Shown: one piece after another, positions 8,310-49,194 of the stretch | Layout: each line of letters starts with the position of its first letter | Position numbering within the stretch: position 1 is the stretch's first letter | Source of the DNA: Amphiscolops sp. MND2022 | Taxonomy: Eukaryota | Direction of reading: 5' to 3' | Assembly: GCA_964187785.1 (NCBI GenBank) | Contig: OZ076409.1 | Span: 37,326,001-37,390,000, forward strand | DNA: 64,000 nucleotides | Made by a program: the position numbers and the translations under genes | The notes under the pieces: generated by a model | What the model was told of the DNA's origin: nothing | The model's database searches: none | What the model saw: the letters and a program-made list of their open reading frames with translations, nothing else

Positions 8310-9487
8310 TGGTGACAGGTGCCAACAAACCACTCCATAGACAAAGCTCTCAAAATACCCAACTTCTAAACGACACCTTAGGATCCCACGCAGACCGCAA
8401 CACTTCTACATCCACAACAAAACCACTTGACCCGGTCAACCAAATTGCCCAGGCTATAGAAAAACTAGCCAATAAAAACTCACAACAATCCTTCTTTCAC
8501 CCTAAAAACACACTCACATTCAATGGAAAAAACGAGAAAAATGAAAAATTCGAATATTTCGATGACTTATTCCACACAACCCTCAAAATGCAGCCAAATC
8601 TCACAGAAGAAATGAAGATCAACCACTTTCATGCACATCTCAGAGGATTGGCGTTAAAAACCTTCAAAAACATCCAGAGAACACCCACAACAACACTGGA
8701 AGACATCCTAAAAGTCTTCCGCCGAAAGTACATCAAACCAGAATCAAGTGCTTCGGCATAACATAGATTTGACCCAGAAAAACCGGGTCACCGACTAACA
8801 TTTCACCGACTAGCATTTGACCGGTTAGATTTCACCGACTAACATTTGACCCAGAAAATCAAAAACTACCCGATTTTTTTGAAGATTTGCAAGAAAGCGC
8901 GGAAAAAGCTTTCGGTGACAATGCACACCATATGATAGAAAATCTACTCTATGCCAAGATGCCACCGCATCTTAAAAAATCCATCAACCAAGCCTATCTG
9001 GAAAATGGCTCATTTGACCAAATCGTCAAACATCTTGAAAGAGAGATGGAACTTATTCGTCTAGAGGCAGACGAAGCCCTTGTCAAAACTCAAATGACCG
9101 TTACGAAAAAAGAACAAAACACTGAAAAACCCAACAAAAAATGACAAAACCAAAAAACAAACTCCGAAAACAGTACCCGACAAAACACTCAAAAATGATC
9201 AATGTCGTTACTGCAAAGATGCCTGCCATATGATGACTGACTGCCCTAAATTAGCTAAAAGACGAAAACTAGAAGAAGACCCGGATGCACCTAAATGTCC
9301 CAATTGCAAGACTCCGGGACACGAGGAAGAAGATTGCTATTTTGGTGCCGATATGGATAATAGGCCACCAAAATGGAACCTAACTGAAGCCCAAAAGAAA
9401 GTTATCGAAGAATACAAGCGAGCTAAAAAGCCAATCAGACCCAGAATCGAAAGAAACCAACAATCCTCGTCGAAGGATTTAAACTAG
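7742..9487 (+). pseudogene. gag: Gag of element A, starting inside the LTR; capsid-like region plus two CCHC knuckles; disrupted
   Basis: ORFs 7646-8761, 8887-9144 and 9230-9487; motifs KINHFHAHLRGLA, CRYCKDACHMMTDC, CPNCKTPGHEEEDC; internal stops and frameshifts. Confidence 0.9.
8310..8322 (+). promoter_or_regulatory. Primer binding site of A (TGGTGACAGG; tRNA identity uncertain, possibly Leu-like)
   Basis: TGG immediately follows the LTR-terminal CA; the same 10-mer follows the 5' LTR of C. Confidence 0.75.
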
Positions 9488-12400
9488 AAACGCCACGACT
9501 TTACACAAAATCAGCACAAAAACCAAACTCCGCCGATGACTGGCAGCATCAACTGAGTCCAAAACCCACAAAAACATCAGCCTTTGACACCGACTCAACA
9601 ACGCAAAATTCTCAACAATCAACACTGGAAACATCACCAGAAGAACTATATGAACTCTTTCAAGACACACCAAACAACTACTTCACAAAACAACCAACCC
9701 ACCCCGAAACAGACCCAAACTTAGACATTCACCACGAATCTCCCATCAAAAACCATGTCACAATAAAAACTTCTTGCGATGATCAAAAACAACCCTTATT
9801 GAATGAAGACCTCTCTGAACACATACAATTTGACAAAGAACGAAATTTATCATGTCTACCAATCTCAACCTCTTTGACATTGAAGCGAAAACGCCATATG
9901 TACTACATTCCAATGGACTTCGAAAAACTCACACTTGATGGTCTTATTGATACCGGAGCCCTTACAAGTGCAATCTCCGAACAAGAGCTCAACAAAATCA
10001 AGTTGCTAGCAAATAAAGCAATAAAAGAAACTGGTCCCCCACCAAACTTTCAAATTATGGTGGCCAATGGACAACTGGAAGTCCCGATTGGTACTGTTCT
10101 ACTTGAATTTGAAGTGGCCGACTTCATGTTGAAGGAAAATTTCATCATTATGAAAAACTTACCAAACCCGTTAATCGGATTGTGTTTTCTCCGCAGAAAT
10201 AACGCAATCTTTGATGTCACCCAAGGCATCCTAACTTTCCCCTTTCAATGCAGCTCAAACCCGACACCCAAACATCAATACGACAAGCAACACCATTGTT
10301 TGCTGAAAATACATATACCTTACAACCAGGCGAAACTCTAGCAATTGCAAGCAGAATGCCCCATCTGATGGACCATGACGCAACTGGAATAGTCACCCCA
10401 TCACATCAGTTTGAAAACCACGATAGCATCTTCATCACTGCGTCACTCAGTACTGTCAACAACAATGCTATCGGATACCAAATCATCAATTTTTCTGATT
10501 TACCATATACAATAACCCTTGATACCCATTTAGCGGATTTCAAGATACTGACACCAGAGCAAATCAAACATATACAGCCAGTGGACCCAGCGTTACTGTC
10601 CTTCATGATACAACATGAGGAAACAACGGACGGCTACATAAACGAACTCCTCAAAGTTCCAAAAACAAACTCAGAACAGGAGTCATACTGGTTCCCTACT
10701 CCTGAAGAACCAGGTGACCCAGCAACATACACTCCATTTCAACAACGAATCTACAACGAAATCCCAGAACTCAAAGAACTTGAGAAACTAAACCCACAAC
10801 ATAACGAAAATTCCAGAAAAACTTTCCTTTCAAACTTCGACTGGACCGACACAACACTCAGTCCTGACGAACGGAAAGAAATTGAAGAAATTCTCATTGA
10901 ATTTCACGATATTTTTGCCAGACACCGTTTTGACATTCGCATAAATCGCGAATTCAAAGTAAAACTAGCGCCAAACGATGAGAGGTCTGCCTATTGCCAA
11001 AATCTGCCAACTCCTATCAATCTCAAAGATGATATTACAGTAGAACTTGCACTCCTACATAAGTATGGCATCATTACAACACTACCTTTTTCTAAATACG
11101 CAAGCCCAATATTTGCACAACGCAAACCCAACGGGCGCCTCAGACTCCTGGTTGATCTAAGGAAAATCAACAATCTCATCACCGAAGAATACGTCAACAA
11201 CAACCAACCAGTAAGCACCCTATCGGACGCAGCCCAACATATGGCAGGGAAAAAGCTTTTCTGCAAATTGGACTGCTCCCAGGCTTACCACTGCCTGCAG
11301 ATGGCGGATTACCAATCCATCCAAATGCTCGCTTTCAATTTTGCAAGTAGAACATTCGCTTATCGTCGCCTTGCCCAGGGTCTCAGCAGATCACTTTCTG
11401 CCTTTTCAAGCTTTATGAGAGAGTACCTGGACAGAGCAATTAAAGCGGACCAATGTGCACAGTATGTCGATGACATTGGCATCGCGGCAAATGACACAAA
11501 ACAAGTCTGTACGAATATCAAAACTGTTTTTGAATGCATACGCAGTGCAGGATTAAAACTCTCCATGTCAAAATGCCACTTCGGACTCAAACAGGTCGAC
11601 TTTCTGGGACGCACAATCGCACCACATGGAGTTGCCCCTCAAGCCGACAAAGTAAAGGACTTCCTCTCAAAACTTCGCTTCCCGAAATCAAAAAAGGCGT
11701 TACAGAGGTATATCGGGTTTCTAAAGTATTACCGAAATTACATACCACGCCTTTCGGAACGGCTCTCACCGTTCTTCAAACTCCTCAAAGAAACTTCCAA
11801 ATTCTATGTACCGACAAATTTGGTAGAAGACTTCGCGAACCTCAACAAACTCCTAGAAAATTCTTGCCAGTTAGCATTAAAACAACCACTGAAAAACAAG
11901 CAACTTATAGTCATGTCCGATGGAAGTTTCACAGCTGCCGGATATGCTATCATGATAGAGGATGACCCAAACCAGAAGCTTCACTCAAAACGCAAAACAT
12001 TTGCACTCATAGCTTTCGGTTCAAAAACTTTCAATCCTACACAGACGAAAATGTCAATTTATGCAAAGGAATTTCTGTCAATATTTTTTGCATTTGTTGA
12101 ATTCGGACACCTCATGAGGGGTAGTACCTTCCCAGTAATCGTGTTTACAGACAATCGATCTGTAACCAGATTTTTCCAACCAAAAATGATCCCTCCAGCA
12201 CTTTGGAATGCCTGCGATTACGTATTGCAATACAATTTCGTGATCGCCCATGTAGCTGCAACAATGAACACTGCTGCTGACTTCTTATCTAGAACGGAGG
12301 TCGACCCAACAGAAAAACTGGAAATGACAATCCGCAACGACATTCACAGGAAAGCGATTGAAGTGAATATTCAATCAACTGGCATCGTTGAAGAAGAACA

Positions 12401-14350
12401 AATTTATGTTCTCCCAGATGATGAAATTGACAATAATCAACTATGGGAAGAAAAGCAAAACATTCGAAATCAAGCCCAAACCGAAACACACAATGATCCA
12501 GAAAACGCTGTTTCCGAGCTACAACAATTTCACAAACCTACATCAGGTCTGATCTCCTGCTCTTCGGGATACTTTAAGGATAATGCAAGAATCCGCCTTG
12601 AGCAGAATAACGACATAGTCCTAAGAAACCTCAGAGCAAAACTCAAAGGAAACCCTTTTGACGAGAATGAACTAGCGTCAGACTACCGATACCAGCACTA
12701 CTTACAGAACATAACACGAATAGAGATTAAACAAGAAGTCCTCACACGTAAATACTACACCGACACTGGAACTATATCTCGCAACCAAATCCTCCTACCA
12801 ATCCAACTCCTAGACGAATTTCTTCAGGCCTTACATGGTCATAATTCAAACCATCCAGGAATTACGAAAATGATCCAAGAAGCAAGACAAAAGTACTACT
12901 ACCCATGTATGGCAAAATACATCAAAAAATGGGTTAGTAATTACCAAATCTGCATCCAAACGAAACGCATAAACAATGATCTCCTAAGGACAGAACTTCT
13001 TAATTGTCCGGAATGGTATCTCGAACCGGAAGACATTTTGCAAATGGACATTATACCAAACCTTCCCCCTAGTGGAGGCTATGATCATATCATCACAGCA
13101 ATAGGTGTCTTCTCAAAATACTTGTTTGCCTAACCTGTAACTCGTGTTACTGCAACAGCAGTATCAAGAGTTATCATGGACATCTTATGCAAACACACAT
13201 ACCTTCCAACAACGATAATCACGGACACTCAATTCAATGCACAAGTAACTCACGAAGTTGCGGCAGTACTTGGAATTGAAATGAAATACGCAACAATGAA
13301 ACATGCCCAAACAATAGGACTCCTTGAGAGAACTCATGCATCATTGAAAATGCACCTAAAAGCCGCAACAGGCGAATTTAGGAACAACTGGCATAAATAT
13401 CTCCCCTTGGCAGTCCTCAATCACAACACCACATACCATGCCTCACTCGGTTGTGAACCTTCACGAGTCTTTCATGGTGGATACCACACAATATCCTGGA
13501 CTATAAACTTGGATATAACGTAACCCAAGATACCAACCGCAATTGGATGTAGCAGAAGAAATTCAGAAACGCATGAAAATCCTTCTGGATCAAACCAAGA
13601 AGAACATCATGCAATCATACCTCAAACACAAAGCTTACTATGATCGCAAAACGAAAGCAGCTCCGCTCGAAACAACGGATTACTGCTACATTCTTAACCC
13701 AAAAGCCGACACTCAAGCGACAAAAATACCATTCCGAGAATTCAGATGGTGCGGAGCATATAAAGTAGAAAAAGTGCTCCCTAACAATAACTACATTGTC
13801 CGGAGATTTGGGACTAACAAAACGCAACTATTACATAGGATTCGTCTACGAAAATTCACTCCGCAAGCGCCCTTAGCAGACATTTTTGTCCGAGAAACCG
13901 ATTGGCAAAAAGATGACCAAATGCCTATAACAAATGATGATCTATATGCCCAATCATGGAACACGAACTTTGGTTCAAATCCTTTTGATGATGGTCCTGC
14001 AGAATATTCATTAAATACTGAAGACACAGAATACATCCCAATTCAAATACCCGAAGAAAACCGCCCACCCTCCCCAGGATCTTCAGAAATAAGTTGGGAA
14101 AGCCCAGTGGAACAGACCACTGAACCGGATGAAAACCATGAAAATGAAATACCACAGCAAACCTTTGAAGATGAACAAAGTACCCAAAAAACTCAAAAAG
14201 ATGCAAGAATTTCAGTTAATGATGATATCCAAAAAAACCCCAGAAAATCCACAAAAAACCCCATCACAAGAAGAACCCATAAATACCCGTGGTGATAAAT
14301 ACAACTTACGTCCTAACCCCAAACCAAACTACTCAGACAAATACAGATTG
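9480..14350 (+). pseudogene. pol: Pol of element A (PR, dUTPase-like spacer, RT, RNase H, integrase), a few lesions
   Basis: LIDTGA protease; QYVDDI RT; VMSDGS...YAKEFL...FTDN RNase H; HGHNSNHPG integrase Zn region; QMDI/ITD/LERTH core; C-terminal KYNLRPNP. Frameshift ~10245, stop at 13131, later frameshifts. Confidence 0.95.
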
Positions 14351-14447
14351 ATGAAAACAATTCTCCGACAAAACATTATCCCATACTGGTTTTATACTCC
14401 CAGCATTTTTCTTTTTTCTTGCACACTCAATAATAATAAAGCAAGAC

Positions 14448-14724
14448 TCTTATAGAGTTAGATTATCGTGAAAGGATAACTAATGTTTATTGTCGTATTC
14501 ACTGTGAATCTTGTTTCAGGTCAAAAGACGGGAAGCAATACTCTATTCATATAAGACCATATGGCAACTGAGCCAATGTTAGAGTTGGAACTCTATAGTT
14601 TTACTGGTACACTATTTGTAAATAAGTATTGAAATAAATGTACAAATTGGCTAAATGTTTATGTCACTCATATGTCTTTAATTAATTGTTTTTGAGTTTC
14701 TTCTTTCGACAGAGCCCTGTCACA
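14448..14724 (-). repeat. 3' LTR of element B (277 bp)
   Basis: Direct repeat of 17795-18077, preceded by the PPT on the minus strand. Confidence 0.93.
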
Positions 14725-14827
14725 TTCCCCTCTCTGTTCTTTACGTTCGGTCAACAAATTTGAACATAAATAGTTGTGGCTCTTCTATTTGCTTCCGCTA
14801 GTTGTTAATTATTTCTACAGTGGTATT

Positions 14828-17795
14828 TAATCTTCGTCAGATGATGAGATTGTAATGACTTCTGGTGGTTGTTCATTTCCGCAGATCATTACCGGATTTC
14901 CGAAATAGTTTGGCGCTTTCTATCTCGTTTTGGACGTTCGTTTGATTGAATGGATTGTTGGCTGTTTGTTTCTTCTTCTTCTGAGTTTTTGGGTTCAGTT
15001 TTTGGGGTTTCCTCCCATGTAGTTGTTGCTTTTATTGGTGCTTTTTGTCGCACCCTTTTCTCCTTCTCTTCATCAGCGGATTCGTTTGCTAGCTGTTCCC
15101 AATTGGCTAGTCTTTTGAATTCTGTTGGTAGATTTGCCTTTTTTTGATTTCTTTGGTTGGCCGCTTTTGATTGGTTGATAGCTGCTTTCTGGTGGCTGTT
15201 CGTAGTGCAGTTTGCGTGCTGTTTGCTTGCTTGTTGAGGGCTGCGGTTCTTTTGTTATTGCCACGTCGCGTTTGCTGAGTGTAGTTGGTTGGCGTTTCTT
15301 ATTGCTGATCGTTATTGTATGATCTGTTTCACGAGTTATCACGCCCTTCTTCTTTTTGTAGAGGTCATCTAATTTAGTACCTCTGGCTCGTTCTCGTACA
15401 AGAATTTCCGAATTTTGTTCTCCCGGACATCTCCAATTGAAAGGTATTGTCGTTATCTAAAACATTGTAGTTTTTAGTTGGTTTAGTAGTAGTTTAGTTC
15501 AATTTGGGATGAAGCGTTTAGCTGATTTACCTCTCCCAAGTACGATCTAAGTTCTTTTGAGCTCTTTGGGATGAGTTTTTCTGTTATAGCTTGTACTTTT
15601 GAAATGATTGGTTTTATCCCGGTTTGAGACAGTTTGTATCCTAACCATTCTATTTCTTCTTCAGCAAATTTGCATTTTTCCCACTTTAGTCTAACGTTTG
15701 CGTTATCCAATCTTTTTAGTACTTGTTTTACTGCTTCGAAGTGTTTTTTTTGTGCCCTCTGTTACAATTTGTATATCATCTAGAAAGACATACGTGTTTT
15801 GTAAATTTGCTAGTTCTTTGTGCATTGCTTTTTGGAACTCTGTGGGCACTATGGTTAATCCATAAAATCCTGTAATAAATCTATATGTACCGGTGGCTTT
15901 TCCACCTATAATTTGGAAGTTACAGTGTTTTGCTGTTCCTTCTTCCAGCGGCACTTGTCCATACGCGTAACGCATGTCTAGTGACGTGTATAATGCTTTT
16001 TCTTTATTGTCAAGTTGTTCAGCTACTAAATCGACCAAATGTTCTAAATTTGGCATTTGGTATTTGTCTTTCACAATTTCGTTATTTAATGCCCTCGCGT
16101 CTAGTGCGATTTTCACATTTTTATCTTTCTTCACTGTGATTACCACAGGTTGGATGAATTGTTTATCTGTTACTTCATTTACTTTTTCTATATGTCCTTC
16201 TTCCAATAGTCTTTCAATTTCTTTTTGTACCGCCTCTTGTAATTTTACTGGTACTCTTCTACCTTTGTTGTTTTATTTTGACATTTTGTTTAAATTCGAT
16301 TCGCACCTTATGTTTGTTTAGTTTTCCTTCTCGCTCGAATGAGTCCTTAAATTGCTGTTTTAGTTTTATTTGTTCGTTTTGTTTGTCGTTCCAATTTTCT
16401 GGTTTAGTTGTCTCGCTTGGTTTAGTTGTTTTAATTGGTTCTGTAGTTCCACTTGTTATTTTACAAATAATTGGTTTACCTTTATTCTGATTGGGGGAGA
16501 CGAACTTATAGTTGAAGGCGTTTAACCAATCTCTTCCGATTAGTGATTTGGCTCCTTTTCCTGCTACCAGTATCCTCGCTTTTTGCATTTTGCTTTCTCC
16601 AACTTCTAGTTGACAGAATACGTAGCCCAGTAGGTTCAGCTTTCTTTTGTTGAAGTCTATGTATTCTTCATCTTCGGGTAGTTGTCGTATGAATAATGTA
16701 TTTCTCTTCATTATTCTTTTAATTTCCTCAATTTCAAAGATCGTTACTGGTGAACCTGAGTCTACCATCGTCTTGAATTGGTTACCATTTATCTTCCCGC
16801 TCATGAAGAATTGTCCGTTTTCTCCTCCTTCGATTGTTAATACGATTTTGTCTTCTTCTATCATTGAGCCTGAGCTACTGTCTTCCCATTCGTCTATTCT
16901 TTGTATGCTTTGTGCTGGTGCTTTTATGATTTTTCTGCTTTTCGCAAAGTTTCCTGCACCTCTGGTTTGGCAGCATTTTGCGAAGTGTCCCTTTTTTCCA
17001 CATTTCATGCATGTTATTCCCATCGCTTTACATTCTTTAAGGTTTTGTGGGCTGAATGGGGCCCCGCATCTGAAACACTTTTTTGTTGGTCAACAGCGTT
17101 TCGTTCCTGATGTTATGTTGTTTATTTCGTTCGGTTCTGGCTTTATGTTTGGTTTATCCATTTTTTCGAATGATTGTTGTCCTAGTGCTCCCTCTTCGTA
17201 TGATATTGCAAATTGAATAGTGTAGGCAATTGTGCTATTGGGTTCTGTGCACAATTTCCGTTGTACATCTTTATTATTCATATTCACTATGAAGACATCT
17301 TCCACCAGACTTTCAGTTATGTTTCCAAAGTTACATTTTGCTGCCAGTCCGTTTAGTTCGTTCCAGAATTGTCTCAGCGTCTCGTTTTCCTTTTGTTTAC
17401 GGCTCAGGAATTTAAATCGATCCAGTGTTTTTTGGTTTTTCAAAACAGTCTTTACATGTTTTGATTAAATCTTCCAGGGTTATTCTTGCTGTGTTTACCG
17501 TTTGAAAATTGTCTGAAATTGTCTTCCTTGCTGCCATCCCCAATGCCAGGTATAACACACTGTTTGCTTTCTTCATTGCCGTTGCTTCTTCCATGTCTCC
17601 CATGAGACTTTTGTCTTTATTTCCGGTAGTTTTTGTAAGTTCTGCTACCGAGATGTTGCTTTTGGCCATAAGTGCGACTTCGAATAACTCCATCCATTTT
17701 TCCCATTCTAGTTCTGGAGGTTTTGTTGCCTCCTGCCAGTGAATAGGTAACCCAGCAATTGAAGAGCTGGTTCGTGGTTCGCCTTGCAGCGACAT
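14828..17795 (-). pseudogene. gag-pol of element B, frameshifted and deleted
   Basis: ORFs 17412-17795, 17090-17443, 16259-17023, 15703-16206, 15483-15710, 15073-15342; ends PPEVITISSSDED*. Confidence 0.88.
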
Positions 17796-18077
17796 GTTAT
17801 AGAGTTAGGTTATCGTGAAAGGATAACTAATGTCTATTGTCGTATTCACTGTGAATCTTGTTTCAGGTCAAAAGACGGGAAGCAATACTCTATTCATATA
17901 CATATAAGACCGTATGGCAACTGAGCCAATGTTAGTGTTGGAACTCTATAGTTTTACTGGTACAGTATTTGTAAATAAGTATTGAAATAAATGTACAAAT
18001 TGGCTAAATGTTTAAGTCACTCATAAGTCTTTAATTAATTGTTTTTGAGTTTCTTCTTTTGACAGAGCCCTGTCACA
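17795..18077 (-). repeat. 5' LTR of element B (283 bp)
   Basis: TGTGACAGGG...ATAACA on the minus strand, followed by PBS-like TGTCGCTGCAAG; carries an extra CATATA relative to the 3' LTR. Confidence 0.93.
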
Positions 18078-18159
18078 AAGACAAACGAAATATAAACATA
18101 ACAAATTTCTCCTATGAGACGAAAACAAAAGAAACAAAGTTTACAGAAACAAGACTGCT

Positions 18160-21100
18160 TTAGTTCTTCTTAGCCTTTCCACTCGTCACTTTTGTCTTTC
18201 TGGCACCATTTTTTCCTCCTTCGGCACATCGGGATAGAGACACTGTAGCCTTCCCAAGAACTGGCTGAGGATCTGGAGAACTCGTGGGCTGGATGCTCTA
18301 CTCAAAACAGATTCATCGGGGTCGACAGAGAAAGGATCTTCCTCTCTTCTTACAACGGCACTCTTGTATGCACTTTCCAATTTAGACTGAAATCTGACAC
18401 GTCTTGGACCGCTACCTTTTAGGAAGTTCCAAACAGAAAATTTGCGATCATCCAATAAATCACGTCCTCGCCCGATAAGACGAAACACACGACTGAGCAA
18501 TCGAGGGTCTCGGAAGAGACTTGACACGTTTGGGACAGTCTTGTAGGCCAGCTGGATACTCGAAATGCATGAATGAAACACCTCTTCGTCGGGTCCCAAT
18601 TCCGGCATGGGTACAACAAATTGACTAGTGATCTTCGCTTTCGGTGGCAAACACAGACAGGAGTACTTAAATACCCGATGTAGCTCTGGCCGACAGTGTA
18701 ATTCATAACAGGAACAAAGGAATTCAAACCAATCATCTGGCCGGCAGACCTGACTCGAACGAAATTTCGTAACCAAAGACCTGTATTGACTCACAGCCTT
18801 TGTTTTATCACTAACTGTGATCCAGCCATGGGAGGAGAAGTAAGTTGTCAGCATTTCAATTGCAGGCAGATAATTTTTCTCTTCACCATCGAGCATCATG
18901 GCAGAATCGAAACTGGATAAACCTCTAATCAAATCTGAAGTCGCAATCTTATGCTGCAACAGTATTCGACAAAACGCTTTGTAAAAAGCAATCGACTGTT
19001 CGATGAATTTACTGGGTGTTGACAGCTTGCTGGAAGTCACTAACTCGTGAAAATCAGAGTTCAGAACGAATTCATCACAACTCTTGAAAGGGAGACCAGG
19101 CTGGGTTAAATCGAGCTTCTGATAACTGTCCCAGTCGGAAACACTGCCAAGGATACTATCTGGAAGTATACTTTGGAGCTGGGAAAAAACGAATACCGCA
19201 AACTGGTTAAACAGGCGAAATCCAGCTTCATAACCAGTTGGTGCTTCAGAAAATGATGAGTTGTCTGTAACACAAATATCAAAAACATCCAAAAACGATA
19301 AAAGTAAAACCATGAGTCACATATAGTTAGGGTGCCAACAACTTCACTATGCTGTATAGTACGAGATATAATTGGAGCAGATGCGGCATCCTACGGTTTT
19401 AGCTGTTTTACGATCTACCTTTTAGTCAAATATGCGGCATCATGCGGAAACAGGGACGCCGCATATGCGGTATCATACGGAAAAAGGGATGACGTACAAA
19501 CGGCATCCCGCGGCTTTGGTGTATTATTCAAAGAAGCGAGACCTAATGAAAATCGCAAGTCACATCTGCGTGAAAGAAAAACTACAACGAAAAACGATAC
19601 TACTGATATAAAGGCACAATGAAAACAAGTGATAAAAGAGTACTAACAGTGATCCAAGACACAGCGAATGACAAAAGGCCGGGCCAGGTATGCAGTATCG
19701 AGCCGGAAACATTCGTCTAGCGTACTGGTCTAAAAAACCGAAACGGTTAATCAACAAAGTGATTATGGCTACAAAAGAAACCTAAAACGAAATATTACCT
19801 CACGCATGTGGTATCGGAAGGTTGGCAATCGGGAAACCCGATTCAGGTGATCCAACACCCTGTCTCAGTGTGCAGATAACAGGGCTATGATGGATGAGGC
19901 CTCCTCTAGTGTGTATGTCAAGTGTGTTACGCACTAAAAGAGAAGATACCATGAAGTTAAAGGTTAAAAATATATTATGAGACAGAGTAAAACAGGAAAA
20001 TGTACCTTGTGTAACACAGGAATTGACTGCAACCACTCCTGACCCAGCGCGGTTCTCAGTTTCATCAGTAAGAAATCCAATATCGTCCTGAAGTCGTGTC
20101 GCTCAAGAATCCTGGATGTTGGCATGGATAAGCATTTTTCTAACTCAGTAACTCCAAACCAATTGACGACCATTGGGCAAGTTTTCCTAGACAGTGATCG
20201 AGTAAGACAAGTCGCTAACCTCTCGTCAAAATTAACAAGGCTAAGGCAAGATGGTGGATTCTCTGATAGACTGAAGTAAGACGAGAGCAGGGAAAGAAGT
20301 CTTTTTGGTAACAATAACCCACGGGGCCCAGATCCAAGACAAACTTGGTAATAAACGTTCCCCGACCAGAAACTCAGTAAGAGGAAATTTTTAGTAAAAG
20401 AACTCTCATAAGATAGAAAACAAACTCCAGCTGTTCCAGTAGTCACGACACAGTAATGCATTAGTTCGCGAAACATATATGTAACGATAGCCTAAACGGA
20501 AGGTAAAATTATGACCTTTAAAACATGAGTAGAATAAAATTGGAGCAGAAAAATACTTACATAAATGCGATGTTGACTCCATTTGTGAGTAGTGATTTGG
20601 GCGCTGCTGCTTGGTGACAATCTTGAGAGACCGAGCAGGACATTTATGTGTCCAACATGGCGGAATCCGTTCTCGAGAATGCAGATTTGAGCCAGAACAC
20701 TTTCACTCGGGCTGGTAACAGAACTGAATTCCGGCAGCCGCTCTTGCCCGACTAATAAACGGCACCCATCTAATTGAGGGCGATTGAATGCGCTTCTCTA
20801 GCTCTCCGTTTCGTTTCTTCCAGTCCTATCCCCCGTAGTTCATTTTCTTCTTGGACAAATAGAGGTAACCCAGGATTTTCTAAACGGATCCTATGTTCCT
20901 TTGTCAAATGAGCTTCGGTTTTGTAATGAGATAATAATTCTAAAACCCCTCTGCTCATCAGGGACAGCTCTATCTTGCAAACTCGACACCACCATTTGTA
21001 TGGGTTCGTGTTTCTGTCGAGTGGTCCGGTGGCGAAATATTGGACGACAGGATGTTTTTTCAACATGGCTGAAGTTAGCGAGTACTTTGGTCTTCGTCTT

Positions 21101-21865
21101 TTGCCCCATGCCAACGGAAGTTCTTCAGAACTGGAATGGGGACGCAAATCATCTTGTCCGACAACAGTAAGAGTGATGTTATCTGGAACGTTACGATCCC
21201 CTATCACTAAGGCAGTCTTCGGGATCTTATCCAATACGCTTGAAAGCGCTAAAACTTCTAGCTGCGTGACAGTAACTTGTTGTACTGTTTCCACTTTGGG
21301 ATCAACACAGTCTCTGGCATGTGAGGTATCGGGAATATCCTCGTCGGACTCAGGCATCTCGTCATCTCTTTCTTTGTTTTCCCCCTCTGTTAGGTTGGTC
21401 GGCGGATTTCCTTCAGAAGAATTGAGAGGCTGATCAACATCAGGCCTATTCAGTTTTGGACTAGAGTAGTAGCCCCTCGGACCATATTTATGAACTCAGT
21501 GAAGCGAGGAGAATTAGTGGTGAAAGTACCTTGCGGCTGTTCCTCAACGTTCGGTACAGCGATGGTTGCCAAAGTCTGATCTTTGTCTTCAGTCACGGTA
21601 ACATTCTTATCAGACAACTCAGTTTCCTCAATGGGTATCTCTGAAGAACCATTAGTAGTATCGTGGATCAAAAGTTGTCCTTACCCTGCGGATTCATCCA
21701 AACGTGTGGCGAGAACTCGCTCTATCTCTTCGTTACTTCCTGTGGAAATTTCCTGTACTGGTAAATTTTCGGGAGAATTCTGAGTTGCTGGAGAAACAGC
21801 TTCTAGAGGCGTTTAGACTTTTGTCGGTGAACGTGCTGGTGAAGTTTGAGTCGCTCCCAGGTCAA
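18160..21865 (-). pseudogene. Antisense spliced accessory gene of element A: BED-like Zn finger plus hAT-transposase-like body. Exons ~21865-20561, 20491-20006, 19933-19799, 19729-19648, 19264-~18160; 5' exons unresolved
   Basis: GT-AG introns at 20492-20560, 19934-20005, 19730-19798 and 19265-19647 join the frames; motif WWCRVCKIELSLMSRGVLELLSHYKTEAH; colinear homology with the C antisense gene; a few stops and frameshifts. Confidence 0.8.
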
Positions 21866-22665
21866 CTGAAACAAGTTCAAATGCTTAAAGCGGAAGCGAA
21901 AGCAAAAGAATTACAGGAAGTAGCATTGAATTAACTTTGAAACCGGACGCGGTAAAAAATCACAAAGCTACTTCCGCCCCAAAAAATCAAAGTTTGACAG
22001 AACTATTTTCACACTAAACTAAACAAATCGACTAATGTAAATTAGTTACTTCATTTTGCAAGCCTGGCCAGCTCTGCATGATGATCCCACAACCAAAACA
22101 AATTCCACTATGAATTAAAACTTAAAACAAAAGTTGAACCAACCTGGAGAAGTCTCAGTAGGAGATTTGTACCCCCACGATCCTGGCACTCGTCTCGAAA
22201 TTCGATCCTTTTGCGATTTCCTCCGACTGGTTTCCCGGAATAAAAGGAAACCTACAAAACAAGATTAATGAACGACGATCCAAAGCAGGATAAGGAAAAC
22301 ACAATTTTAATGAGCGTTTAGAAAAAGTCTGGGATTGCAGAATCCAAGAGAAAATTGTTAAAGAAACTGACTATACTTTTTCCAAAAATAAGCTGAAAAG
22401 ACTGAGATTGAAGAATTGAAAGAAATGCGTAATTGCATGAAATTGGAAAGGCGTGGCGTACGAGTACAGGCAAAAGAGCAAAATGTGACAGATATCGTAC
22501 ACGGAAATAGTGTGGTTCTCAAATCTGATTGGTCAATTAAATGTCAATCACTTCGGCCAGAGTGAAAGATTACATATTTGACGTAAACGACTGACTCATC
22601 ACCCATTCTCATTACAAGCGAGAGTGAACGACAAGAGCACGTGGCTTCTATACAGTATTACAATT

Positions 22666-22825
22666 CGGCATTATGCGGAATTATGGGTTCCAGATACAGC
22701 TCTATGCGGCATTATGCAGAATTACGAGTACCGAGTATGCGGCATTATGCGGAATTACGAGTGCCGTGTATGCGGTATCATGCGGAATTACAAGATGTTG
22801 AGTATGCGATAATATGCGGAATTGT
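22666..22825 (+). repeat. Degenerate ~33-bp tandem repeat (TATGCGGCATTATGCGGAATTACGAG...), about 5 units, in the spacer between the divergent accessory genes of A
   Basis: Repeated units are directly visible. Confidence 0.85.
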
Positions 22826-23737
22826 ATATATCAGCGGACAGTGAAGACAGAAACAGTCAATGACGAGATTACGTAACAGAATTCATTCTTGCCGCCTTGG
22901 AGTCAAATAATACTACGTGGCAAGATGAGCAATACATGTGAATAATATAGACTCACTTTGCATATGATGGATGATTAAACAACCATTATTGGAAACATGG
23001 AAATACATCTAGACGTTTGTTATTGAAACCCAAACTTAGCACAGTATATGACCACCCGATGCTCAACAATAGTATATTTTGATCCCAGTATGGTATTGAT
23101 ATGTGAGATAAATCACAATTACATGCCCCTAACGCACTTTTTAAGTGCAGGACTAGTGATGCCATGAATACCTTAGATAGATAACCTTATGTTCGAACAC
23201 TTAGCTAGCAACTTTAAACTTTTCTTTTACAGAATTTCAATATGTTCTTTCAATCTAGTAATGTAAATTTGGATGAATTAACCCTGTTCAAAATGCCATG
23301 AATGAAAGTTGTATTGTGAACCTAATTCATCTTCCGAAAAAGGAAGGAAGTTGTTGACAAGCCATTTAAAATATCAATTCGATGAAGAGCAACAAGAGAG
23401 ATAATTTTACGAGATGAAACTGAGAGAAACACTTGAAATTGAATTGTTTAGACCTCATTGACGGAAGCAGATCAGTCTCATCTCTTTGAAATATCCGACC
23501 CCATCGCCCTAAACTCTATATAAGGATGGGAGGTGAGGCAAAAATCACAACCCCAAATCTTTTTCGCGGGAATCATCACAGTCAACTGGAGCAGATAAGA
23601 AAACCACCATAAGGTCTCATAGCAATTTCAGAAACAGTAACACATCTAAAGCACATCTCAATCTGCATCAAAATAGTTCCAAACGAGTAAAACTCATAAA
23701 TTCTACCCTTTTGATATCAGTTAATCTCACACAAATT

Positions 23738-24802
23738 ATGGATAATCTACAATTCAATATTGAGGAAGAATTAATGTTGCCATCGTTGTCCCCTGCAGTG
23801 ATCGACGTCTCAAGTGACTCAGGCGATGAATTCATTGTTCATCCGGGAGATCTGTCAGAAATAGAGGACAGATTCAGACCGGGTGGCCCTCGATCAGATG
23901 TCATGACTGGCTTCATGGGAGCGGCAACAGCTTCCCTGTTCCCCACCCAAACGAGAAGATCAGACGAAGACGAGATAATCGACATCTCTGGGACCCGAAT
24001 TGAGCGCCAATTAGTGGATTTAATGGAAGAAGACCAACACGATTACGAATCCCCACCAACCTCATTTATAGACACCGAACTAGAGGACTCTCCAATGTCT
24101 CCGTGGGAATCGCCCCACAGGGTTGAGGGTTCAACAAACAGTTATGGGAGGCCGACAGCCGCAATTTTACCAACTCCCCGTGACAATTCTCAAAGAAGTA
24201 TACCAGTGAACAGGCCTGCTGCGAACTACACACCAAATTTTGTGGCTAGCGCAAGTAACTTCCAAATAACACCGCTCAAAGTTTCTAACAATCATCAGCG
24301 AACGATCTACCCAAGCAACTACAACCAGCAAGAAATAATCATCACTGCCAATATGAACCCACCTATGGCTGAAAATATGGTGGTTTATAACAATGCTCCA
24401 CTGATGATACAAATACCCCCAATCGGAAGAAGAATGGACATTCCTCATCAAACCCTTGTTACGAATAATCAACAAGTGTTCAATTTCCCTTTCAATGTGG
24501 AACACAGTTCCAAGTTACTGCTGATCCCGACCAGTGAAAGACAGATGCCTAGATTGTTCCCAACCGTAATGCCACACGTTGCAGGCTTTTGCGATTGGTG
24601 TGGAAAATGCTATGATCAACTAGCATAGGAGAGTTTGGGCGAGTATCTAATAGCAACCGCCTACGACGCCGAGACAGTGAGAGACCGCGGGGTAAGATCC
24701 CGAGCATTCATTGATGGTTTTCAAGCTGCTCTCTTCTCGTTTAAAAGTGCAGGACTGTCACAACCCCACGCTTATGCTGGAGTTGTTGGGCAACAACCCT
24801 AA
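23738..24802 (+). CDS. Sense accessory ORF of element A (acidic, SIM-like motifs, CxxC); one in-frame TAG at 24626, otherwise open into the 3' LTR
   Basis: ORF 23711-24628; the frame stays open for 57 more codons (ESLGEYL...AGLSQPHAYAGVVGQQP*) and stops at 24800-24802 inside the LTR; TATA-like CTATATAAG at ~23516. Confidence 0.7.
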
Positions 24803-26201
24803 ACGAGAACAGTTAGGCATCTTCAAAAGAAGGAACAAACAGCTTGATGACCTGAAACTTTATACACTTCAAACTTTCCCTTCTTTTGTTTTATGTTGCT
24901 TCGACTTTCACTTCGCAATTTGGAATTGCCATGTAAAATTCTTAGATTTTTTAATTTAACGGTTACAGCTTAACAAGTGCCTAAACAATGATGTTTTCAC
25001 TTTCTGTTGACATGAATGACTTTATTTAGTCACAAACTTTCAATTTAGAATGGTTTAATACTATTTCTGAGGTAATGTTGTGAACAGATTGTCATTGACA
25101 CATTACTGTGGAAGTTTAATGTTGATAAGTATACGTCACCATGCAGTAATCCGAGTGACGTATATGCGTCATCCTGTGGATTTGCGCTTATAACATGTAT
25201 TTTTGGTGCTTTTAATGAGAGTTGATTATGCGTCACTATGCGGAAAACTGGATGACGTATGTGCGGCATCCTACAATCTTCCAGGGGCTCGTTGCTTTCG
25301 TATAGTTAGATAATTGGAAGTCATGCAATCACCATTTGTAAGTTATAAATAGAATTACGTCACTCTGACGTTAGTTTATTCATAGCATTTTTGAATTACT
25401 GACAACCCTAAAATTGAGTGTCATGCTTTATGATTTTTTCATTTGTAAAAGTGCAGTTTACTTCAGATGAAATATAACTGGTACCAGAGACAGTTGCTTC
25501 ATAACAGTAAACCCAAAAACTGTAAAAGCAGTTTCCTTGATAACTCTTTGTTTCACCGGGATTGTTTTCACAACATTGACGAATAAATTCAAAGTCTTTC
25601 TGCACTTTAACCCAATTTTCCTCTCGAGCAAGATGGGAAATAGAAGAAATCGAAGGTCCAGAAGGTTAGAAACTCCGTCCCCGGAGAGAGAAACAAGCGA
25701 AGTACGCATAGAAACTCCAAGTCAAGGTAATGAAACTTTAACTAATGTTAAATTACAAAGTCAAGAAAGTTTAGGTGAAACTGATTTGAGACCCAGATTA
25801 GTTGAACCCAGCCAAATCAGCAATGAAATTCAAGCTTGGACCGAGATTTTCGAACAGAAAAACAATGATAGAATCACTAAAATGAGAGAAGAAATGGAGA
25901 ACAAATTAGAGGCGATTCTGATGGAGATAAAAAGTAGTAAGAGCACATCTATGACAACTAATCCTAGATCTGAGATGAACGAAATAGAAAATATGCAACC
26001 ATCGGGATCCGGGGGTAAAAGGTCTATGGGAGTAAACGCATCTGATAATGAAAATATAGACTCTGAAAACGAAGATATCCCCCCTCAAAGCCTCAGAATT
26101 GAGAGATTTAAGGCATCCCGCTAAACCCATACACCAAAATGATACAACATTAGATGCAACAATTATCTTTAACGAAGAATCTGATGAGGAGGATTATCAC
26201 A
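24756..26201 (+). repeat. 3' LTR of element A (1446 bp), carrying a copy of the Gag N-terminal ORF
   Basis: Direct repeat of 6871-8309, followed by TSD GTACC. Confidence 0.96.
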
Positions 26202-32292: not shown

Positions 32293-34507
32293 TGTCACGA
32301 CCCGCTCCCGGTCGTATTTTTACTTGCTGCTCTGGAATACCAGGACTCGGCAGAGGACATGGACAAGGGCAGAGTAAACATTTTTAAACTTTGTTAAACT
32401 AATCAAAATTCTACTTACAGTACAGTTAAATAAGTGCGAATAATTTTCCAAATACGGAATTCAACGTAAGCGGTACGGAGGATTTTCAGAAATGACTCTA
32501 AACTAGCTAAAACTTCCGATCTAATGTTTTCACACGCAACACCGTTTCATTTCCGGTTTTGTCTTCTGAGTTTTCCATTTCAATCTACATACTAAATAAT
32601 TTTGCAAACGGGATCATTTTGGCGCTCCACACTAAGATGAAAACACAGAAACAACGTTTAACTCCGAGATCTCAACGGAGTCCATAAGATCTAAAATGAA
32701 AGAGCATACAAAAACAGAGCGGAAATGTATTCCAATATTAAAATAGCTGTTAAATATCTACTTAAAATCGCAGTCAAGTGATTTTAAGTATATGTTTAGA
32801 ACGTTATGACAGCGTCACTCAACTAGGCTAGTAACGGGTGTTTCTATTTTTACGGACCAATAGCGTCGCTTGCCACCGGAATTATATGAGCTCGTACCAA
32901 TAGAATTACGCTTGGTTGCCCCTAGCAACGCTTACTAGCTAAGAAAAGAGAATAGAATCGCCTACGCTCTCCGTTTTCACTCCGCTTGCTACTGCTGCTC
33001 AGCTATAAGCAATCTTAATACGTACGTAGCATCTACGGAGCAGATTGTAAAATTGTATTCCGCTCTTCAGCTATAAGCAATCTTAATACATACGGAGCAT
33101 TTACGGAGCAACTTAAGAAATTGCAACTAAGAAATACTGCAATGAATGAATTCCTTGAAAGATCTTTTCTGAATCGGTGCACCTTAAAAAGTCTTAAGAT
33201 TAAGTTTACATAAAGAATAGTTGTACTGTGAGATTATAAAGTGGATTATAAAGTGAACGTAACACTCGCGTTACTTTGAAGTTTGTATAAGTTTTGATAC
33301 GATGCAGTAATAATCATTCCAGTAATCTCTCCTATTTCTTTTCTATTCTTGCCCAATCCTCCCCCGGATGCTATGATGTTGTATTTTTATATGTCTTCTT
33401 AGACCTTTGAGTCTGAATACCTTGTGTGCTAACTGCTAAACAAGTTTTGGCAAACGAACCATTTCCGTGGCATTTAGTTGATGCTAAAAATCAAATGTTT
33501 TGTCTTGTGTTCCAATGCATGTAAAGTTCGTAATAATTTGCCATTCTATAGGCAATTCGTTTCTGAAAGGCTTCTCAGCATCACTTTGTTCTTCATTTTG
33601 AACCTCCAAGTGTTTCTGGCTCTAAAATATTTACATCCGTCATAATTCCGTCGCTATTTTTGAGTGTCATTCTTTTACTCCGAATTTCAACTTTCAAGTT
33701 AAGAAGCTGACTAATTGATCACGCCTGCGTCGATGAAAATGAAAGCTAGACATTTGTTTTGCCGCAATTTTGAAGCTTAAACAGGAAATGGATCGCCTGA
33801 ACGAAAATGATTTCAACAAAATTTTACGGAACACTGACGCAACTAGGAATTTTGATACCTGATTTTATGACGCGGGACTGAAATAATATGAATCATTAGC
33901 GCTTTTTGTTGAACAAAACCGATTTTTGTGATACCTAGGAATTTTTAGGTGAGGAACAAATGATGCTGGGAAGGTATAAATATGTAAAACATACATGTAA
34001 ATCAGTTAGTTTTTTGACCTACTTTGTAACAACTAGTTCTGTTCCGTTTTCATAACGTGTTCAAAAGAAAACTTAAATCTTTGAAGAATTCAACTTTTCC
34101 AAAGATACAATCTCTCTCTCTCTCTAAAATGACTACTAGAAGCCAGAAGAGGAAAGCCGTAGCTGAGTTAGTGTCAGGAGATTTTGAAGCTTCTTTAGCT
34201 GAGAACAATTCTACTGAAAACCTAATAGCTAGTTCCAGTAAAAACCCTAGACTTGAGCTCGAAAACTTGGAGGAGATAAAGACAACTCTGAGAAAAGAGA
34301 TCATGTCTGATTTAACGAAAATACTCGCTGAAAATCAAAAGGAAATGTTCAAACTAATAGCACCTTTGAACAAGAAACAAACTGTCCACTTGAATGTTCA
34401 AGACTCTGACTCTGAACCTGAGAATGTTTCCGTAACAAGGACGTCTACCCCCGTCAAAACTCATACTGCGACTAACTCTAAAACAACACCGGTAAATAGT
34501 CGTAACA
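32293..34507 (+). repeat. 5' LTR of element C (2215 bp)
   Basis: TG...CA direct repeat; TATA-like GGTATAAATA at ~33973. Confidence 0.96.
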
Positions 34508-35406
34508 TGGTGACAGGAGTCCTCAATGACTCTACCAACCAACCCACGAAAAGATCAAAACAACAACGCGCATCCAACGAGCAAACAAAAGACCGTCCTT
34601 CAACATCTAAAATACTGTTCGCGCCACAACCGCAAACATTTCCAGCTACCAACCTACTTCCGATGCCGAAAGCACTGCTTCGCTTCCAGTCTTCGATGGT
34701 AAGTCCGAAAAGTTTGAACTTTTTGAGGACCTATTCCGAAATAATATCAAAATGTACCCTCACCTAACTGAGATACAAAAGATCAACTACTTCCATTCAC
34801 TCCTACGAGGAAACGTGAATTTTGACCCCACTAAACAGAAACTCCATGAGTCCTTGACGCCCTGCAAAAACAGCAAAAGAAGCATTCGGTTCAGAAGCAC
34901 AAAGTTTCATTGATAAAGCAATCTACGCCAAAATGCCGGATCACGTCAAGAAGATCCTCAACAGAGCGTATTTGGCAGATAAACCCTACAATGACATAGT
35001 GTTGCATCTTGAGAGGGAAATGAGGTTAAACGGACTAGGTGCGCCCGACGAAACAACCCTAGTCCCACTCAACACAGTGGACGCCGTAGTGACGGACAAT
35101 AAAAAAGACCAACAACAACGAGGCCATTGCTTTCACTGTGGCAAATATGGCCACTATAAAGCACAGTGTCGCATACTCCAACGTGAGCGTTACAATATCG
35201 CCAAAACAACCACAAAAGACCCAGCCCAAAACGAAGCACCCAAACCCAAGTGTGATACATGTGGCAAGATGCACAAAACTGAGAACTGCTGGAACGGAGC
35301 CAATGCGGCAAATGACCCCAGAAAGAAGAAACGAGAATTCACCATTCCAACCAACAAAATCAGCGAACAACCTGTACCCACACTGTCCTCCCAGCCAAAA
35401 AACTGA
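34129..35406 (+). pseudogene. gag: Gag of element C, starting inside the LTR; internal deletions; two Zn knuckles
   Basis: MTTRSQKRK... through RNMVTGVLN; AKMPDHVKKILNRAYL (compare A AKMPPHLKKSINQAYL); CFHCGKYGHYKAQC, CDTCGKMHKTENC. Confidence 0.9.
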
Positions 35407-38400
35407 AATCGCCGCGCCTACGATTTGGGAAAAAGTAGACGCGAGGGCGTGCACGATAGAGGACCCCCAAACAGGTATGAGGAAGATTTTTTACCCGAAT
35501 GTAATGAAGAACCAACTCAAGACTGGCAACGCCGTTCGAACGTAGGCATGATACTCAGGCATAACGCCAGACACCCAGACGATCCAACGCCACTACCCCA
35601 GTGGATAACAGAGTCACCCGATAACTATGCGACACTCAAAAGACCGTTGCCGGAATCAAAAACAGACCGAATTTATATATATGACAGAGACTACAGATGT
35701 GACCCTTGGGATGAACCAACTATCTATGACACAAATAAACTGTCCTTCAAAATCCAAGTCTCAAACCCTCAGGCTCAATCTACGGGGATTACAAACCTAC
35801 CATCACCACCGTCACCGATCCTGAAAAGAACAACACCATCCCCAACAGTACCCGTCACCATCACGTCCACACCAATAGACGCAGAGAACATCATCTGCAT
35901 TGAAGATAAAACAATATGGGCACAACAGGAAAGAAGAAAACGAGAGAATGCCGACCCCCAGTAACCCCTCCAAAAACCGCGCCCGTCACGGCACTGACGC
36001 ATGACGACGTAGAAATCACGGAATGTCCCTCAAAACTGCCCGAAGATCTAGATGCCATCAAAGAATTCATCCAACATGACAAAGACGACGACTTCATTCC
36101 GTTAATGTCTGCCATCGCTCTCAAGAAGACAAAACGAATGCTTTTTCTACCAGTTGAATTCAACACAGTCAAAATCGACGCTCTAGTCGACTCAGGTGCG
36201 TACATTAACGCTATTAGTGAAAGGGACGCTGAAAAACTCCGACAGCACGCTACCCCCACCCCCTTTCAAAGTGCAGTATGCCAATGCTGAATTAGAACAA
36301 CAACCACTTGCCACGTACACCCTACGTTTCAAAATAGGGGATTACACCTTTGAAGAAACATTCATCATCATGAATCAAACGTCTTTCCCCATAATCGGAT
36401 TAGCGTTCCTACGTAAACACGCCGCAATCCTCGACACGGCGCAAGGAACCATCGACTTCCCTAAAATCCAAATCACGATGGCGCTCACAGATGAAAGACA
36501 AAAATGCAATCCCAAGCCCATCACAATAAAGACCGAAGCCAAGCATACAATTCCAGCACACGCTACCCGAATCATCTACGCAACAATCCCTGTGAGTATT
36601 GAACACTCAATAACTGGCACAATACAACCTTTACCACAAATTGACGAATGCGCGAAGGTAATAGTGGCCCCAGCAATTACCACAGCCAGAGACAAAAAGG
36701 TACCAATTAAAATCGCCAATACCACGGATTTCCCATACACAATAGCTACTGACACCAAAATAGCCGAACTACAGATCCTAAAACCCGAAGAAACGAAGAT
36801 GATCCGTCCAGTCGACATAGCCGCCCTCAATCTCCTCACTGACCATGACGATGTGGTCACGTACATCAATGCACTAATGCAAGTAGAACGGCCCGAAGAC
36901 AATGAAGAGAAATTCTGGTTTCCGACTCCAGAACACCCAGGCAACGAACAAGAACATTCACCCATACAAAAGCGAATCTTGAAAGAACTGCGAGACCTTG
37001 CCGGACTAGAAAAACTTGACCCAATCGAAAACAAAGAGTCTCGCAACAAATTCTTATCCATGTTTAAATGGACCGATTCACTGATTGCGGGCAAAGACCG
37101 TGAAAACCTCGAGGACACCATCGTAGAATTCAACGACATCTTCGCCCGACACCGGCTAGACATCGGGATGAACACACAATTCAAAGTCAGCCTAACACCA
37201 CAAGACGACAAACCAGTCTACACACAAAGCCTACCCGTTCCCATTAACCTCAAAGAAGACCTAACTGTGGAACTGGCCCTCATGCACCGATACGGTATCA
37301 TCACGACACTCCCCTTCTCCAAGTATGCCAGTCCTATATTTGCACAACGGAAACCCAACGGCAAGCTGAGACTGCTGGTGGATCTGCGCAAAATCAACGC
37401 ACTCATAGCAGATGACTACATCAACAACAACCACCCTGTCAGCACCCTCTCAGATGCGGCACAACACCTAGCAGGGAAAAAACTATTTTGCAAGCTCGAC
37501 TGCTCCCAGGCGTACCACTGCCTCCAAATTGCAGATCAAAGGTCAGTAGAATTACTTGCTTTCAATTTTGCTAGTAGGACGTTCGCCTACCGTCGCCTGG
37601 CACAAGGACTAAGCAGAGCTCTATCAGCTTTTTCGAGCTTTATGCGTGAGTATCTGGATTCTGTCATCAAAGCAGACCAATGCGCACAATACGTAGATGA
37701 CATTGGCATCGCTGCAAATACAACGGAACAGCTCATAAAGAACATCAGAGCAGTCTTCAAATGCATTAAAAAGGCAGGACTAAAACTAACCATCGAAAAA
37801 TGTCACTTTCGAGTAACACAAATCGAATTTCTTGGCCGAACCATCACCCCTGACGGAGTAGCCCCGCAAGATCAAAAAGTCAAAAATTTCCTCTCCAAAG
37901 TCCGCTTCCCCAAATCCAAAAAACAAGTTCAAAAATACATTGGCTTTGTTAACTATTGCCGCAATTACACCGCGCTTGTCAGCAAAACTCATCGGCATGT
38001 ACGAACTTCTCAAAGCAGACTCCAAGATCAGAATTTCAGAAGAACTTGTCGATAACTTTAAGGAAATTAACGCCAGTTTAGCGGAAGCTTGTGGACTTGC
38101 ACTCCGACAGCCCATAACAGGCAAACAGTACGTCCTAATGACGGATGCAAGCTTTCGTGCATCAGGCTACGCCCTCATGATTGAGGAGAACGACGAACGC
38201 AAAATACTCTCCAAACGAAAAACCTTCGCACCAGTAGCGTTCGGATAACGAGTTTTTTCACCTGCACAACTGAAAATGTCCATCTACTGCAAGGAATTCT
38301 TAGCAATCTACCATGCCTTCCTTGAACACAGCCACATACTATGGAAAACAACAATCCCAACGCTGGTCTTAACAGACAACCGCTCAGTAACTAGATTCTT

Positions 38401-40669: not shown

Positions 40670-40921
40670 ATGAAAAGAATCACAATGTCAAACTGAACCA
40701 GAATGACTACGTTAATTCTTTGCCAAATTCATCTACCTACAAATAACAATGACAAAACAGCGAACTAAAAATAAAAGATGACCAGAATCCATCAAAAAAT
40801 TCATAAATCACAAATCATCTCTTGGAAGATTTACCAAGTTTATGAAATATCTCAGGATCTGGATCAACAACGTTTTTCGACTTCACGGATTTCTTTGACG
40901 TACTAGCACCGTCCTTCCACT

Positions 40922-44850: not shown

Positions 44851-44879
44851 AGTTGGAAATTGAAATCTTCAACACGATC

Positions 44880-45440: not shown

Positions 45441-45443
45441 AAA

Positions 45444-49167: not shown

Positions 49168-49194
49168 GGTGGCCATTGAGAGGCACGTGAACTC

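Follow-up and report, generated by a model that had tools for sequence, protein, structure and literature searches.

Short words of the type TATGCGG recur in several predicted non-coding parts of a single LTR retrotransposon, here called element A, which carries a zinc-finger gene on its opposite strand. The question raised by this locus is whether these words are binding sites for the element's own finger protein, as the original prediction proposed, or whether they serve host factors, act in RNA or have simply spread by copying. We addressed this question in a 64,000-nucleotide window, the whole stretch of DNA analysed, in which A is accompanied by a related element, C, that has a homologous antisense gene.

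Motif clusters of element A and their repeat unit

Element A (6871..26201, + strand) is a Ty3/Gypsy LTR retrotransposon, with an LTR pair, a PBS, a 5-bp target duplication (GTACC) and the domain order of that group. The 5' LTR (6871..8309, + strand; 1.44 kb) is 96% identical to the 3' LTR (24756..26201, + strand) and is followed by the PBS-like TGGTGACAGG, which A and C have in common. The target duplication fixes the LTRs at 1.44 kb, which excludes a tandem structure with LTRs of 0.7 kb. The gag-pol region (8310..14350, + strand) is interrupted by stops and frameshifts; Pfam reports RVT_1, RT_RNaseH and Integrase_H2C2 above cut-off and Ty3_capsid and gag-asp_proteas below it, in the order gag, PR-RT-RH-IN. 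The first part of a gag-like ORF is contained in the LTRs of both A (7742-8309) and C (34129-34510), and the PBS consequently falls within the reading frame. Beyond gag-pol lies a nested short Gypsy-type element, B (14450..18077, − strand), in which the motif cluster is absent and after whose subtraction the region between pol and the 3' LTR of A measures ∼6.7 kb. This region contains an antisense gene with predicted splicing (18186..22060, − strand; 5' end approximate) and a sense ORF of 363 codons (23537..24628, + strand), which is S/T/P/N-rich with a C-terminal Cys cluster and gives no match in Pfam. The two diverge across the tandem array described below. A sense ORF also precedes the 3' LTR of C (45354-46127); it is likewise low-complexity and without a Pfam match, and the two ORFs show weak similarity (20%, E 0.009).

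A has inserted in a MITE-like repeat (6000-6870, 26202-26915) with many CCATG(G) palindromes and 11-bp tandems. Elsewhere in the window, inverted-repeat pairs at 58370-58836 (built of 15-bp tandems) and at 29053-29166/62787-62900 are likely to be non-autonomous DNA transposons. A BEL/Pao element, D, repeats GTGTCCGG in its long 5' leader (50690-50840), with 5 copies in the element versus 0.06 expected, the repeats stemming partly from a short duplication. Inside D, just past its LTR (49190-49400), is a Cys-rich remnant that, by eye, we take to resemble LDL-receptor class A repeats.

The TATGCGG-type words of element A are present where they had been reported: in a 33-bp tandem repeat, in an intron of the antisense gene and in both LTRs. 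The tandem array and its upstream partial unit (22662..22823, + strand) lie between the antisense gene and the sense ORF; the repeat itself (22703-22823) has 3.6 copies with 85% matches, the extra partial unit being at 22662. The intron cluster (19380..19516, + strand) comprises 2.5 units of 33 bp and one isolated half-site pair. As described earlier, it falls in the largest predicted intron of the coding region (19265..19647, − strand), which is ∼383 nt long by predicted GT-AG sites versus 68-71 nt for the other three. In the LTRs, clusters a and b occupy 7245..7388 (+ strand; a has a 7-nt deletion) and 25130..25279 (+ strand). Exact ATGCGG words are found on the + strand at 7256 and 7347 in the 5' LTR, at 19381, 19432, 19442 and 19465 in the intron and at 25238 in the 3' LTR, and seven copies lie within 22673-22814. 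The predicted gene structure agrees with the claim that the clusters lie in non-coding DNA of A. As duplicates of one another (96% identical), the LTRs count once, which leaves three independent motif sites and not four.

As anticipated, the words are enriched in A relative to the window. In A DNA outside gag-pol (6870-7580 plus 18078-24754, thus with a single LTR copy, against the window background), ATGCGG and TATGCGG are the top 6-mer and the top 7-mer, with 13 versus 0.97 expected and 9 versus 0.2, respectively, in Poisson figures that count tandem copies as independent. The region labels used for this enrichment and for the CpG counts given below have different A boundaries, which leaves the cluster positions unaffected. 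TATGCGG also ranks first against the region's own background (18078-25471; 9 versus 0.34), and its count across the whole 64-kb window, 13 versus 2.87 in shuffles, was reached in 0 of 100 shuffles. A composite, TRCGKYAYNNYRCG, which was defined post hoc, has eight matches, all in A and all on the + strand, where 0.15 are expected. On the sense strand of A gag-pol, ATGCG occurs 0 times versus 4.1 expected. Since tandem copies and twin LTRs inflate word counts, we used a cross-trained matrix test, the result of which is independent of tandem copy number: a 20-bp matrix was trained on a single cluster and the remaining window was scanned on both strands. With matrices from the 22.7-kb array, the intron and the 3' LTR, the top 7, 10 and 8 matches, respectively, were all units of other clusters, with a narrow margin to the first outside match for the matrix from the 22.7-kb array (13.1 versus 12.3).

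All clusters are built on a 33-bp unit composed of a half-site, F1 (TATRCGKCAY), a second CG site, F2, located 10 bp further on, and a variable spacer. F1 and F2 are direct CG half-sites. The unit also contains an inverted F1-like half-site at a fixed position, which together with the F1 of the next unit across TA forms an 18-bp quasi-palindrome (around 19455-19474 in the intron cluster). The statement that the words are mostly in one orientation therefore applies to the exact word, with 14 ATGCGG on the + strand and 1 on the − strand inside clusters, but not to the unit, each full copy of which holds a degenerate inverted half-site. In 6/6 aligned units, the three CG cores (unit positions 5-6, 30-31 and 38-39) do not vary. 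Between clusters, the core columns, which were picked after inspection, are 75% identical (233/312) versus 48% (52/108) for the spacer columns, and similarity is not evident by inspection in the 40-nt flanks. The intron unit also has a CGG-N11-CCG spacing reminiscent of Gal4, which we discounted because Zn2Cys6 factors are not known outside fungi and the window has a BEL/Pao element.

The LTR and intron units also share spacer bases, and common descent by copying therefore accounts for part of their similarity without any need for selection. Taken further, a segment might have been copied among the LTR, the intron and the internal region by template switching and then amplified in tandem, as a neutral process, or the clusters might be a relic of captured hAT subterminal repeats; tandem arrays are, moreover, frequent between pol and the 3' LTR in Retand elements. 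We consider either origin very improbable as a full account. The CG cores are kept while the spacers have diverged, a convincing TIR with an 8-bp duplication was not found around the gene, and copying cannot account for the word excess at synonymous positions described below for element C.

The clusters in the LTRs end ∼65 bp upstream of a TATA-like TATAAAT (7453 in the 5' LTR). The 22.7-kb array is directly upstream of a stretch that bears a CCAAT word and is oriented towards the antisense gene; this putative promoter-like stretch (22520..22650, − strand), read from the sequence, holds words that we take to be CCAAT, CRE-like, AP-1-like and E-box elements. In the LTR and intron, the inverted half-site is often the CRE-like TGACGTA, and 7 of the window's 17 copies of this word lie in clusters, where a host bZIP protein could bind. 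The arrays might be enhancers for such a protein or for another CG-binding host factor, with the antisense protein acting elsewhere, a proposal with which the adjoining TATA-like, CCAAT, CRE-like and E-box words are consistent. We nevertheless regard it as unlikely, because the 22.7-kb array has the same geometry without TGACGTA, one cluster sits in a predicted intron, and two related elements in a single host enrich different words. A scan of the clusters with consensus words likewise found exact GCM, full CRE, NRF1 and DREF words absent and only 3 RUNX-like words.

The strong strand bias of the exact word might also point to a motif that acts in RNA, where it would be recognised by the finger, like the RRE by Rev, and serve in export, packaging or dimerisation; genomic RNA would carry all three sites, and the finger model is weakly like U1/matrin fingers. 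On the minus strand, the intron and LTR clusters do fold better than shuffles (z −2.8 and −4.0, respectively), which is what inverted half-sites would give. However, the sense strands fold unremarkably (z −0.94, −0.96 and −1.63), the 22.7-kb array folds on neither strand, the 10-bp spacing and the palindrome fit duplex DNA, and the protein body points to hAT. A function in RNA is, in our estimation, highly improbable.

The related element C and its own word

Element C (32293..48414, + strand; TSD TCAAC) is a related Gypsy element that has A's PBS and the same layout, with pol, an antisense finger gene and a sense ORF before the 3' LTR. An older extra C-family LTR, ∼92% identical, is found at 29936-32149, 140 bp upstream of C. 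The antisense gene (40925..44870, − strand; 5' end approximate) is homologous to that of A, and the two products are 24% identical in the finger exon and 17-21% elsewhere, as compared with 57% in the RT region.

The enriched word of C is a different one, (C/T)ACGGA, found not only in its LTR and gag-pol but also in predicted introns and in exons. In the C antisense region, ACGGA ranks first among 5-mers (21 versus 6.3), as it does, separately, in the C LTR (8 versus 1.0), in which a 68-bp tandem (46900..47023, + strand) has paired TACG(G/T)AGCA sites 11 bp apart. Under an order-2 background from C's own region, the excess is reduced to 29 versus 17, at rank 4. The predicted introns of C (603 nt) have 6 ACGGA sites in 4/5 introns, against 0.65 per kb outside C; three of the six are in the last predicted intron, which matches the position of A's intron cluster. 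The antisense exons have 5 versus 2.5 (P 0.09). As a held-out test, we applied synonymous-codon shuffling to gag-pol, in which C has 15 ACGGA versus 8.3 and 1/300 shuffles reaches 15; among the 15 comparisons made in this way, one other was at the same level (ATGCG in D, 4 versus 0.8). The gag-pol regions of A (5 versus 5.5) and D (3 versus 3.5) have no excess of ACGGA.

Neither element is enriched for the word of the other, with TGCGG at 1 versus 2.6 in C and ACGGA at 6 versus 6.4 in A, and the words of A are thus family-specific, as had been proposed, when set against C. The two words have an RCGG core in common and differ in the base before CG, and the A and C fingers differ at −8, −5 and −1 relative to the first His, a covariation of finger and motif that is drawn from n = 2 elements in a single window. 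The A-versus-C comparison strengthens the plausible view that the arrays are cognate to the element's own protein. The motif clusters are real and richer than first described, with the original interpretation of them partly supported.

The two families also differ in how their sites are arranged, those of A being in tight arrays and those of C lying on the + strand throughout the element, dispersed and including exons. The scatter of C sites along the whole element, gag-pol included, would suit a protein that binds the arrays but represses, insulates or tethers its own family's genome or integration complex, as would the weak methylation signal and the retention of the whole hAT-like body and not of the finger alone. 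Such an output seems quite unlikely to us, because the arrays of A are promoter-proximal for both strands and because the plant precedents, VANC, TnpA and the AtMu1 transposase, activate cognate copies.

CpG o/e over the examined regions is 0.76-1.15, a slight depletion, and the excess of transitions at CpG is modest, at 8.3% (35/422) versus 5.4% (104/1936) with an upward bias from site classing. The slight depletion makes VANC-style DNA demethylation doubtful as an output. Together with the modest transition excess, it suggests that the silencing being countered, if any, need not be DNA methylation. When LTR pairs are considered individually, transitions affect 11/80 CpG sites versus 14/458 other C/G sites in A, two of them in motif half-sites, and 2/158 versus 18/668 in the main LTR pair of C.

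The antisense finger protein and its hAT-like body

Element A does itself encode a zinc-finger protein, as proposed: the antisense gene contains a BED-like CX2CX16HX5H finger (20908..20988, − strand). The predicted product has a disordered N-terminus, the CCHH finger and then a body. The copy in A is broken by frameshifts near 21490 and 20780 and also by stops. A profile search for relatives returned 533 representatives at E ≤ 0.001, and 100 finger-exon and 99 last-exon relatives were obtained, 198 from ENA and 1 from JGI, all without name or context. Full-length long relatives were absent from one search, a result of little weight, and no loci of relatives were found in the viral, metagenome and prokaryote genomes scanned.

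The finger is the most conserved stretch of the protein (0.91 versus 0.31-0.6 in the N-terminus). CCHH is kept in 76/100 finger-exon relatives, and the full CX2CX16HX5H pattern, which A and C have, occurs in 138/347 of the sequences compared. In the segment that precedes the first His, Gly and Glu are nearly fixed while the surrounding positions differ between clades, giving dozens of recognition-segment variants in the family. In the Hermes BED domain, the corresponding segment is described as making base contacts, and such domains bind cooperatively to a quasi-palindrome together with a third, strictly phased site (PMC10368747). As regards a BED identity of the finger, the signals are mixed. 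The CX2CX16HX5H spacing and a Pfam zf-BED match above cut-off in 1/69 relatives (below it in 3) speak for it, but A's own finger has no match to zf-BED. In a Foldseek search with the finger model, U1/matrin-type RNA-binding fingers were as close as the BED domain of ZBED1 (E 1.1-1.9; ZBED1 1.9).

For the protein as a whole, Pfam gave no family matches on A's own antisense exons, sequence profiles compared with the PDB gave 0 matches at E 10, and Foldseek gave no match at E ≤ 0.001 for either the last-exon or the finger model. A wide fold search with the finger-exon model was set aside, its matches being dominated by a helical hairpin. With the last-exon model, the best of 48,161 chains was Hermes (Z 5.4, rmsd 8.0, 189 residues aligned), the other listed chains having 87 or fewer residues aligned, and in a second comparison Hermes accounted for five of the top 8 entries (135 residues aligned at rmsd 4.5 in the best, Z 5.7); Z values below 8 are within the range of chance arrangements. 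The Atlas language-model neighbours of one relative, P0317, are hAT families at 0.87-0.93, among them DUF659 as well as DUF4371, FAM200-ZBED5 and ZBED1 RNase-like clusters at 0.90-0.93, after an unnamed first neighbour at 0.95; the last exon of A itself gave leads below 0.9 only. The Atlas neighbours, the structural match to Hermes and zf-BED are each weak alone but concordant, and together they make a hAT origin of the antisense protein likely.

The modelled body is likely to be catalytically dead as a hAT transposase. No acidic column is conserved at 80% between last-exon residues 213 and 243, and the columns that are candidates for the third catalytic Glu, 231-232, have E in 0/64 and 2/64 sequences; the position of this Glu, which in Hermes we take to be E572, was inferred from the Hermes-aligned range, and the two Asp positions were judged by eye. 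A search for TIRs with an 8-bp duplication around the gene gave one weak AT-rich candidate in A (2/8 mismatches) and none in C. As neither is convincing, the antisense gene is part of the retrotransposon and not a nested DNA transposon.

Candidate cognate arrays among known systems

The reading that we favour, with a probability of roughly 0.55, is that the clusters are candidate cognate arrays at which a regulator specific to the family and derived from a transposase would bind, most likely as an activator or anti-silencer of A promoters. A hAT transposase gene would have been taken up by an ancestor in the antisense orientation. We propose that its introns could thereby escape loss at reverse transcription, since the genomic RNA corresponds to the opposite strand. 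Catalysis would then have been lost, with selection keeping the finger and the body. The protein would oligomerise and occupy the phased half-sites in a cooperative manner, as the BED domains of Hermes do, and its binding upstream both of the TATA-like box in the LTR and of its own gene would create a feedback loop. Through this protein, intact copies would regulate other members of their family in trans, among them broken ones such as element A here. Finger and motif would diverge jointly between families, and new sites would spread via tandem duplication and template switching. One window offers a candidate protein together with sites of defined geometry and, in A versus C, a natural specificity control, which makes the question directly testable, and the dozens of recognition-segment variants would provide a natural library tying finger sequence to DNA motif.

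The nearest functional parallel is VANC of the Arabidopsis VANDAL transposons, an accessory protein described as binding family-specific short motifs and as an anti-silencing factor under which DNA methylation is lost (PMC5735166). Both systems have an element-encoded accessory protein and dense, same-orientation, family-specific motifs that spread in tandem and lie upstream and in introns (predicted ones in A). In both, the core enzyme is slower to diverge than the accessory protein: between A and C, identity is 57% in the RT region but 24% in the finger exon. The carrier, however, is a Gypsy retrotransposon here and a MuDR DNA transposon in VANDAL, the host here is apparently an animal, the CpG signal is weak, and the protein has a finger and a hAT-like body in place of the DUF1985/DUF287 of VANC. 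Neither of these two domains was found by Pfam in the A exons, in the 48 + 64 relatives that were aligned or in a further 69. The antisense protein of A is not a member of the VANC family, as carrier and domains differ, and the likeness to VANC on which the original prediction drew does not extend to protein type, Pfam having detected no VANC domain in the A protein or its relatives. By analogy, the protein nonetheless likely works like VANC or TnpA.

TnpA of Spm and the AtMu1 transposase are described as transposase-derived, sequence-specific regulators of cognate copies that have lost catalytic residues (bioRxiv 10.64898/2026.08.24.746577), and the antisense protein resembles them in its likely derivation, its putative sequence specificity and its probable loss of a catalytic residue. 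They, however, remain within their own DNA-transposon superfamily or are host-domesticated, whereas here the regulator has likely crossed into a class I element; the word "retrotransposon" has 0 occurrences in the text of that preprint. The Retand/Tat Gypsy elements of plants are similar in a different respect, having a long region between pol and the 3' LTR, an antisense gene predicted to bind DNA (TRP28 ORFs) and family-specific tandem arrays. For these, a regulatory role is proposed, with the function of antisense accessory genes and arrays in LTR elements stated to be unknown (PMC11963269, PMC7264820). Retand elements are restricted to flowering plants and have the TRP28 domain in place of BED/hAT, and the available portions of these two papers draw no link between protein and repeat and report no shared LTR/intron unit. 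TRP28 (PF04195) was not found by Pfam in the A exons or in the aligned and further relatives.

Among the proteins themselves, Hermes and Ac hAT transposases share with the antisense protein a BED-like finger, Hermes being the best structural match of its last exon, and with its candidate sites a quasi-palindrome plus a third site in strict phasing. The A gene differs from them in being without convincing TIRs and 8-bp duplications, in the third catalytic Glu, which is not conserved, and in the location of its sites inside a retrotransposon. The hAT-derived CGGBPs are finger proteins most of which prefer CGG-containing motifs that differ protein by protein (PMC8097297), much as the likely hAT-derived fingers here go with mostly CGG-containing words. 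CGGBP and ZBED proteins, however, are products of host genes and mostly truncated, whereas that of A is encoded by a multicopy LTR element with candidate sites in cis.

In the open-access literature (titles and abstracts), we found no description of a hAT-derived antisense gene or regulator in an LTR element, and in the literature found, sequence-specific self-regulation by transposon-encoded proteins is described only in plants, for DNA transposons. Capture of host-like domains by accessory proteins of plant LTR elements has been reported (PMC13547354). To judge from the look of the gag and RT sequences, the host may be an acoel worm, and in one acoel genome roughly half of the sequence consists of LTR elements (PMC9911081). 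Our broadest suggestion, which we hold tentatively and at somewhat less than even odds, is that a lineage of animal Gypsy elements turned a captured hAT transposase into a family-specific self-activating or anti-silencing factor with many finger-motif pairs. Such a factor would be a class I counterpart of VANC assembled from class II components, and it might have driven a massive expansion of LTR elements in the host.
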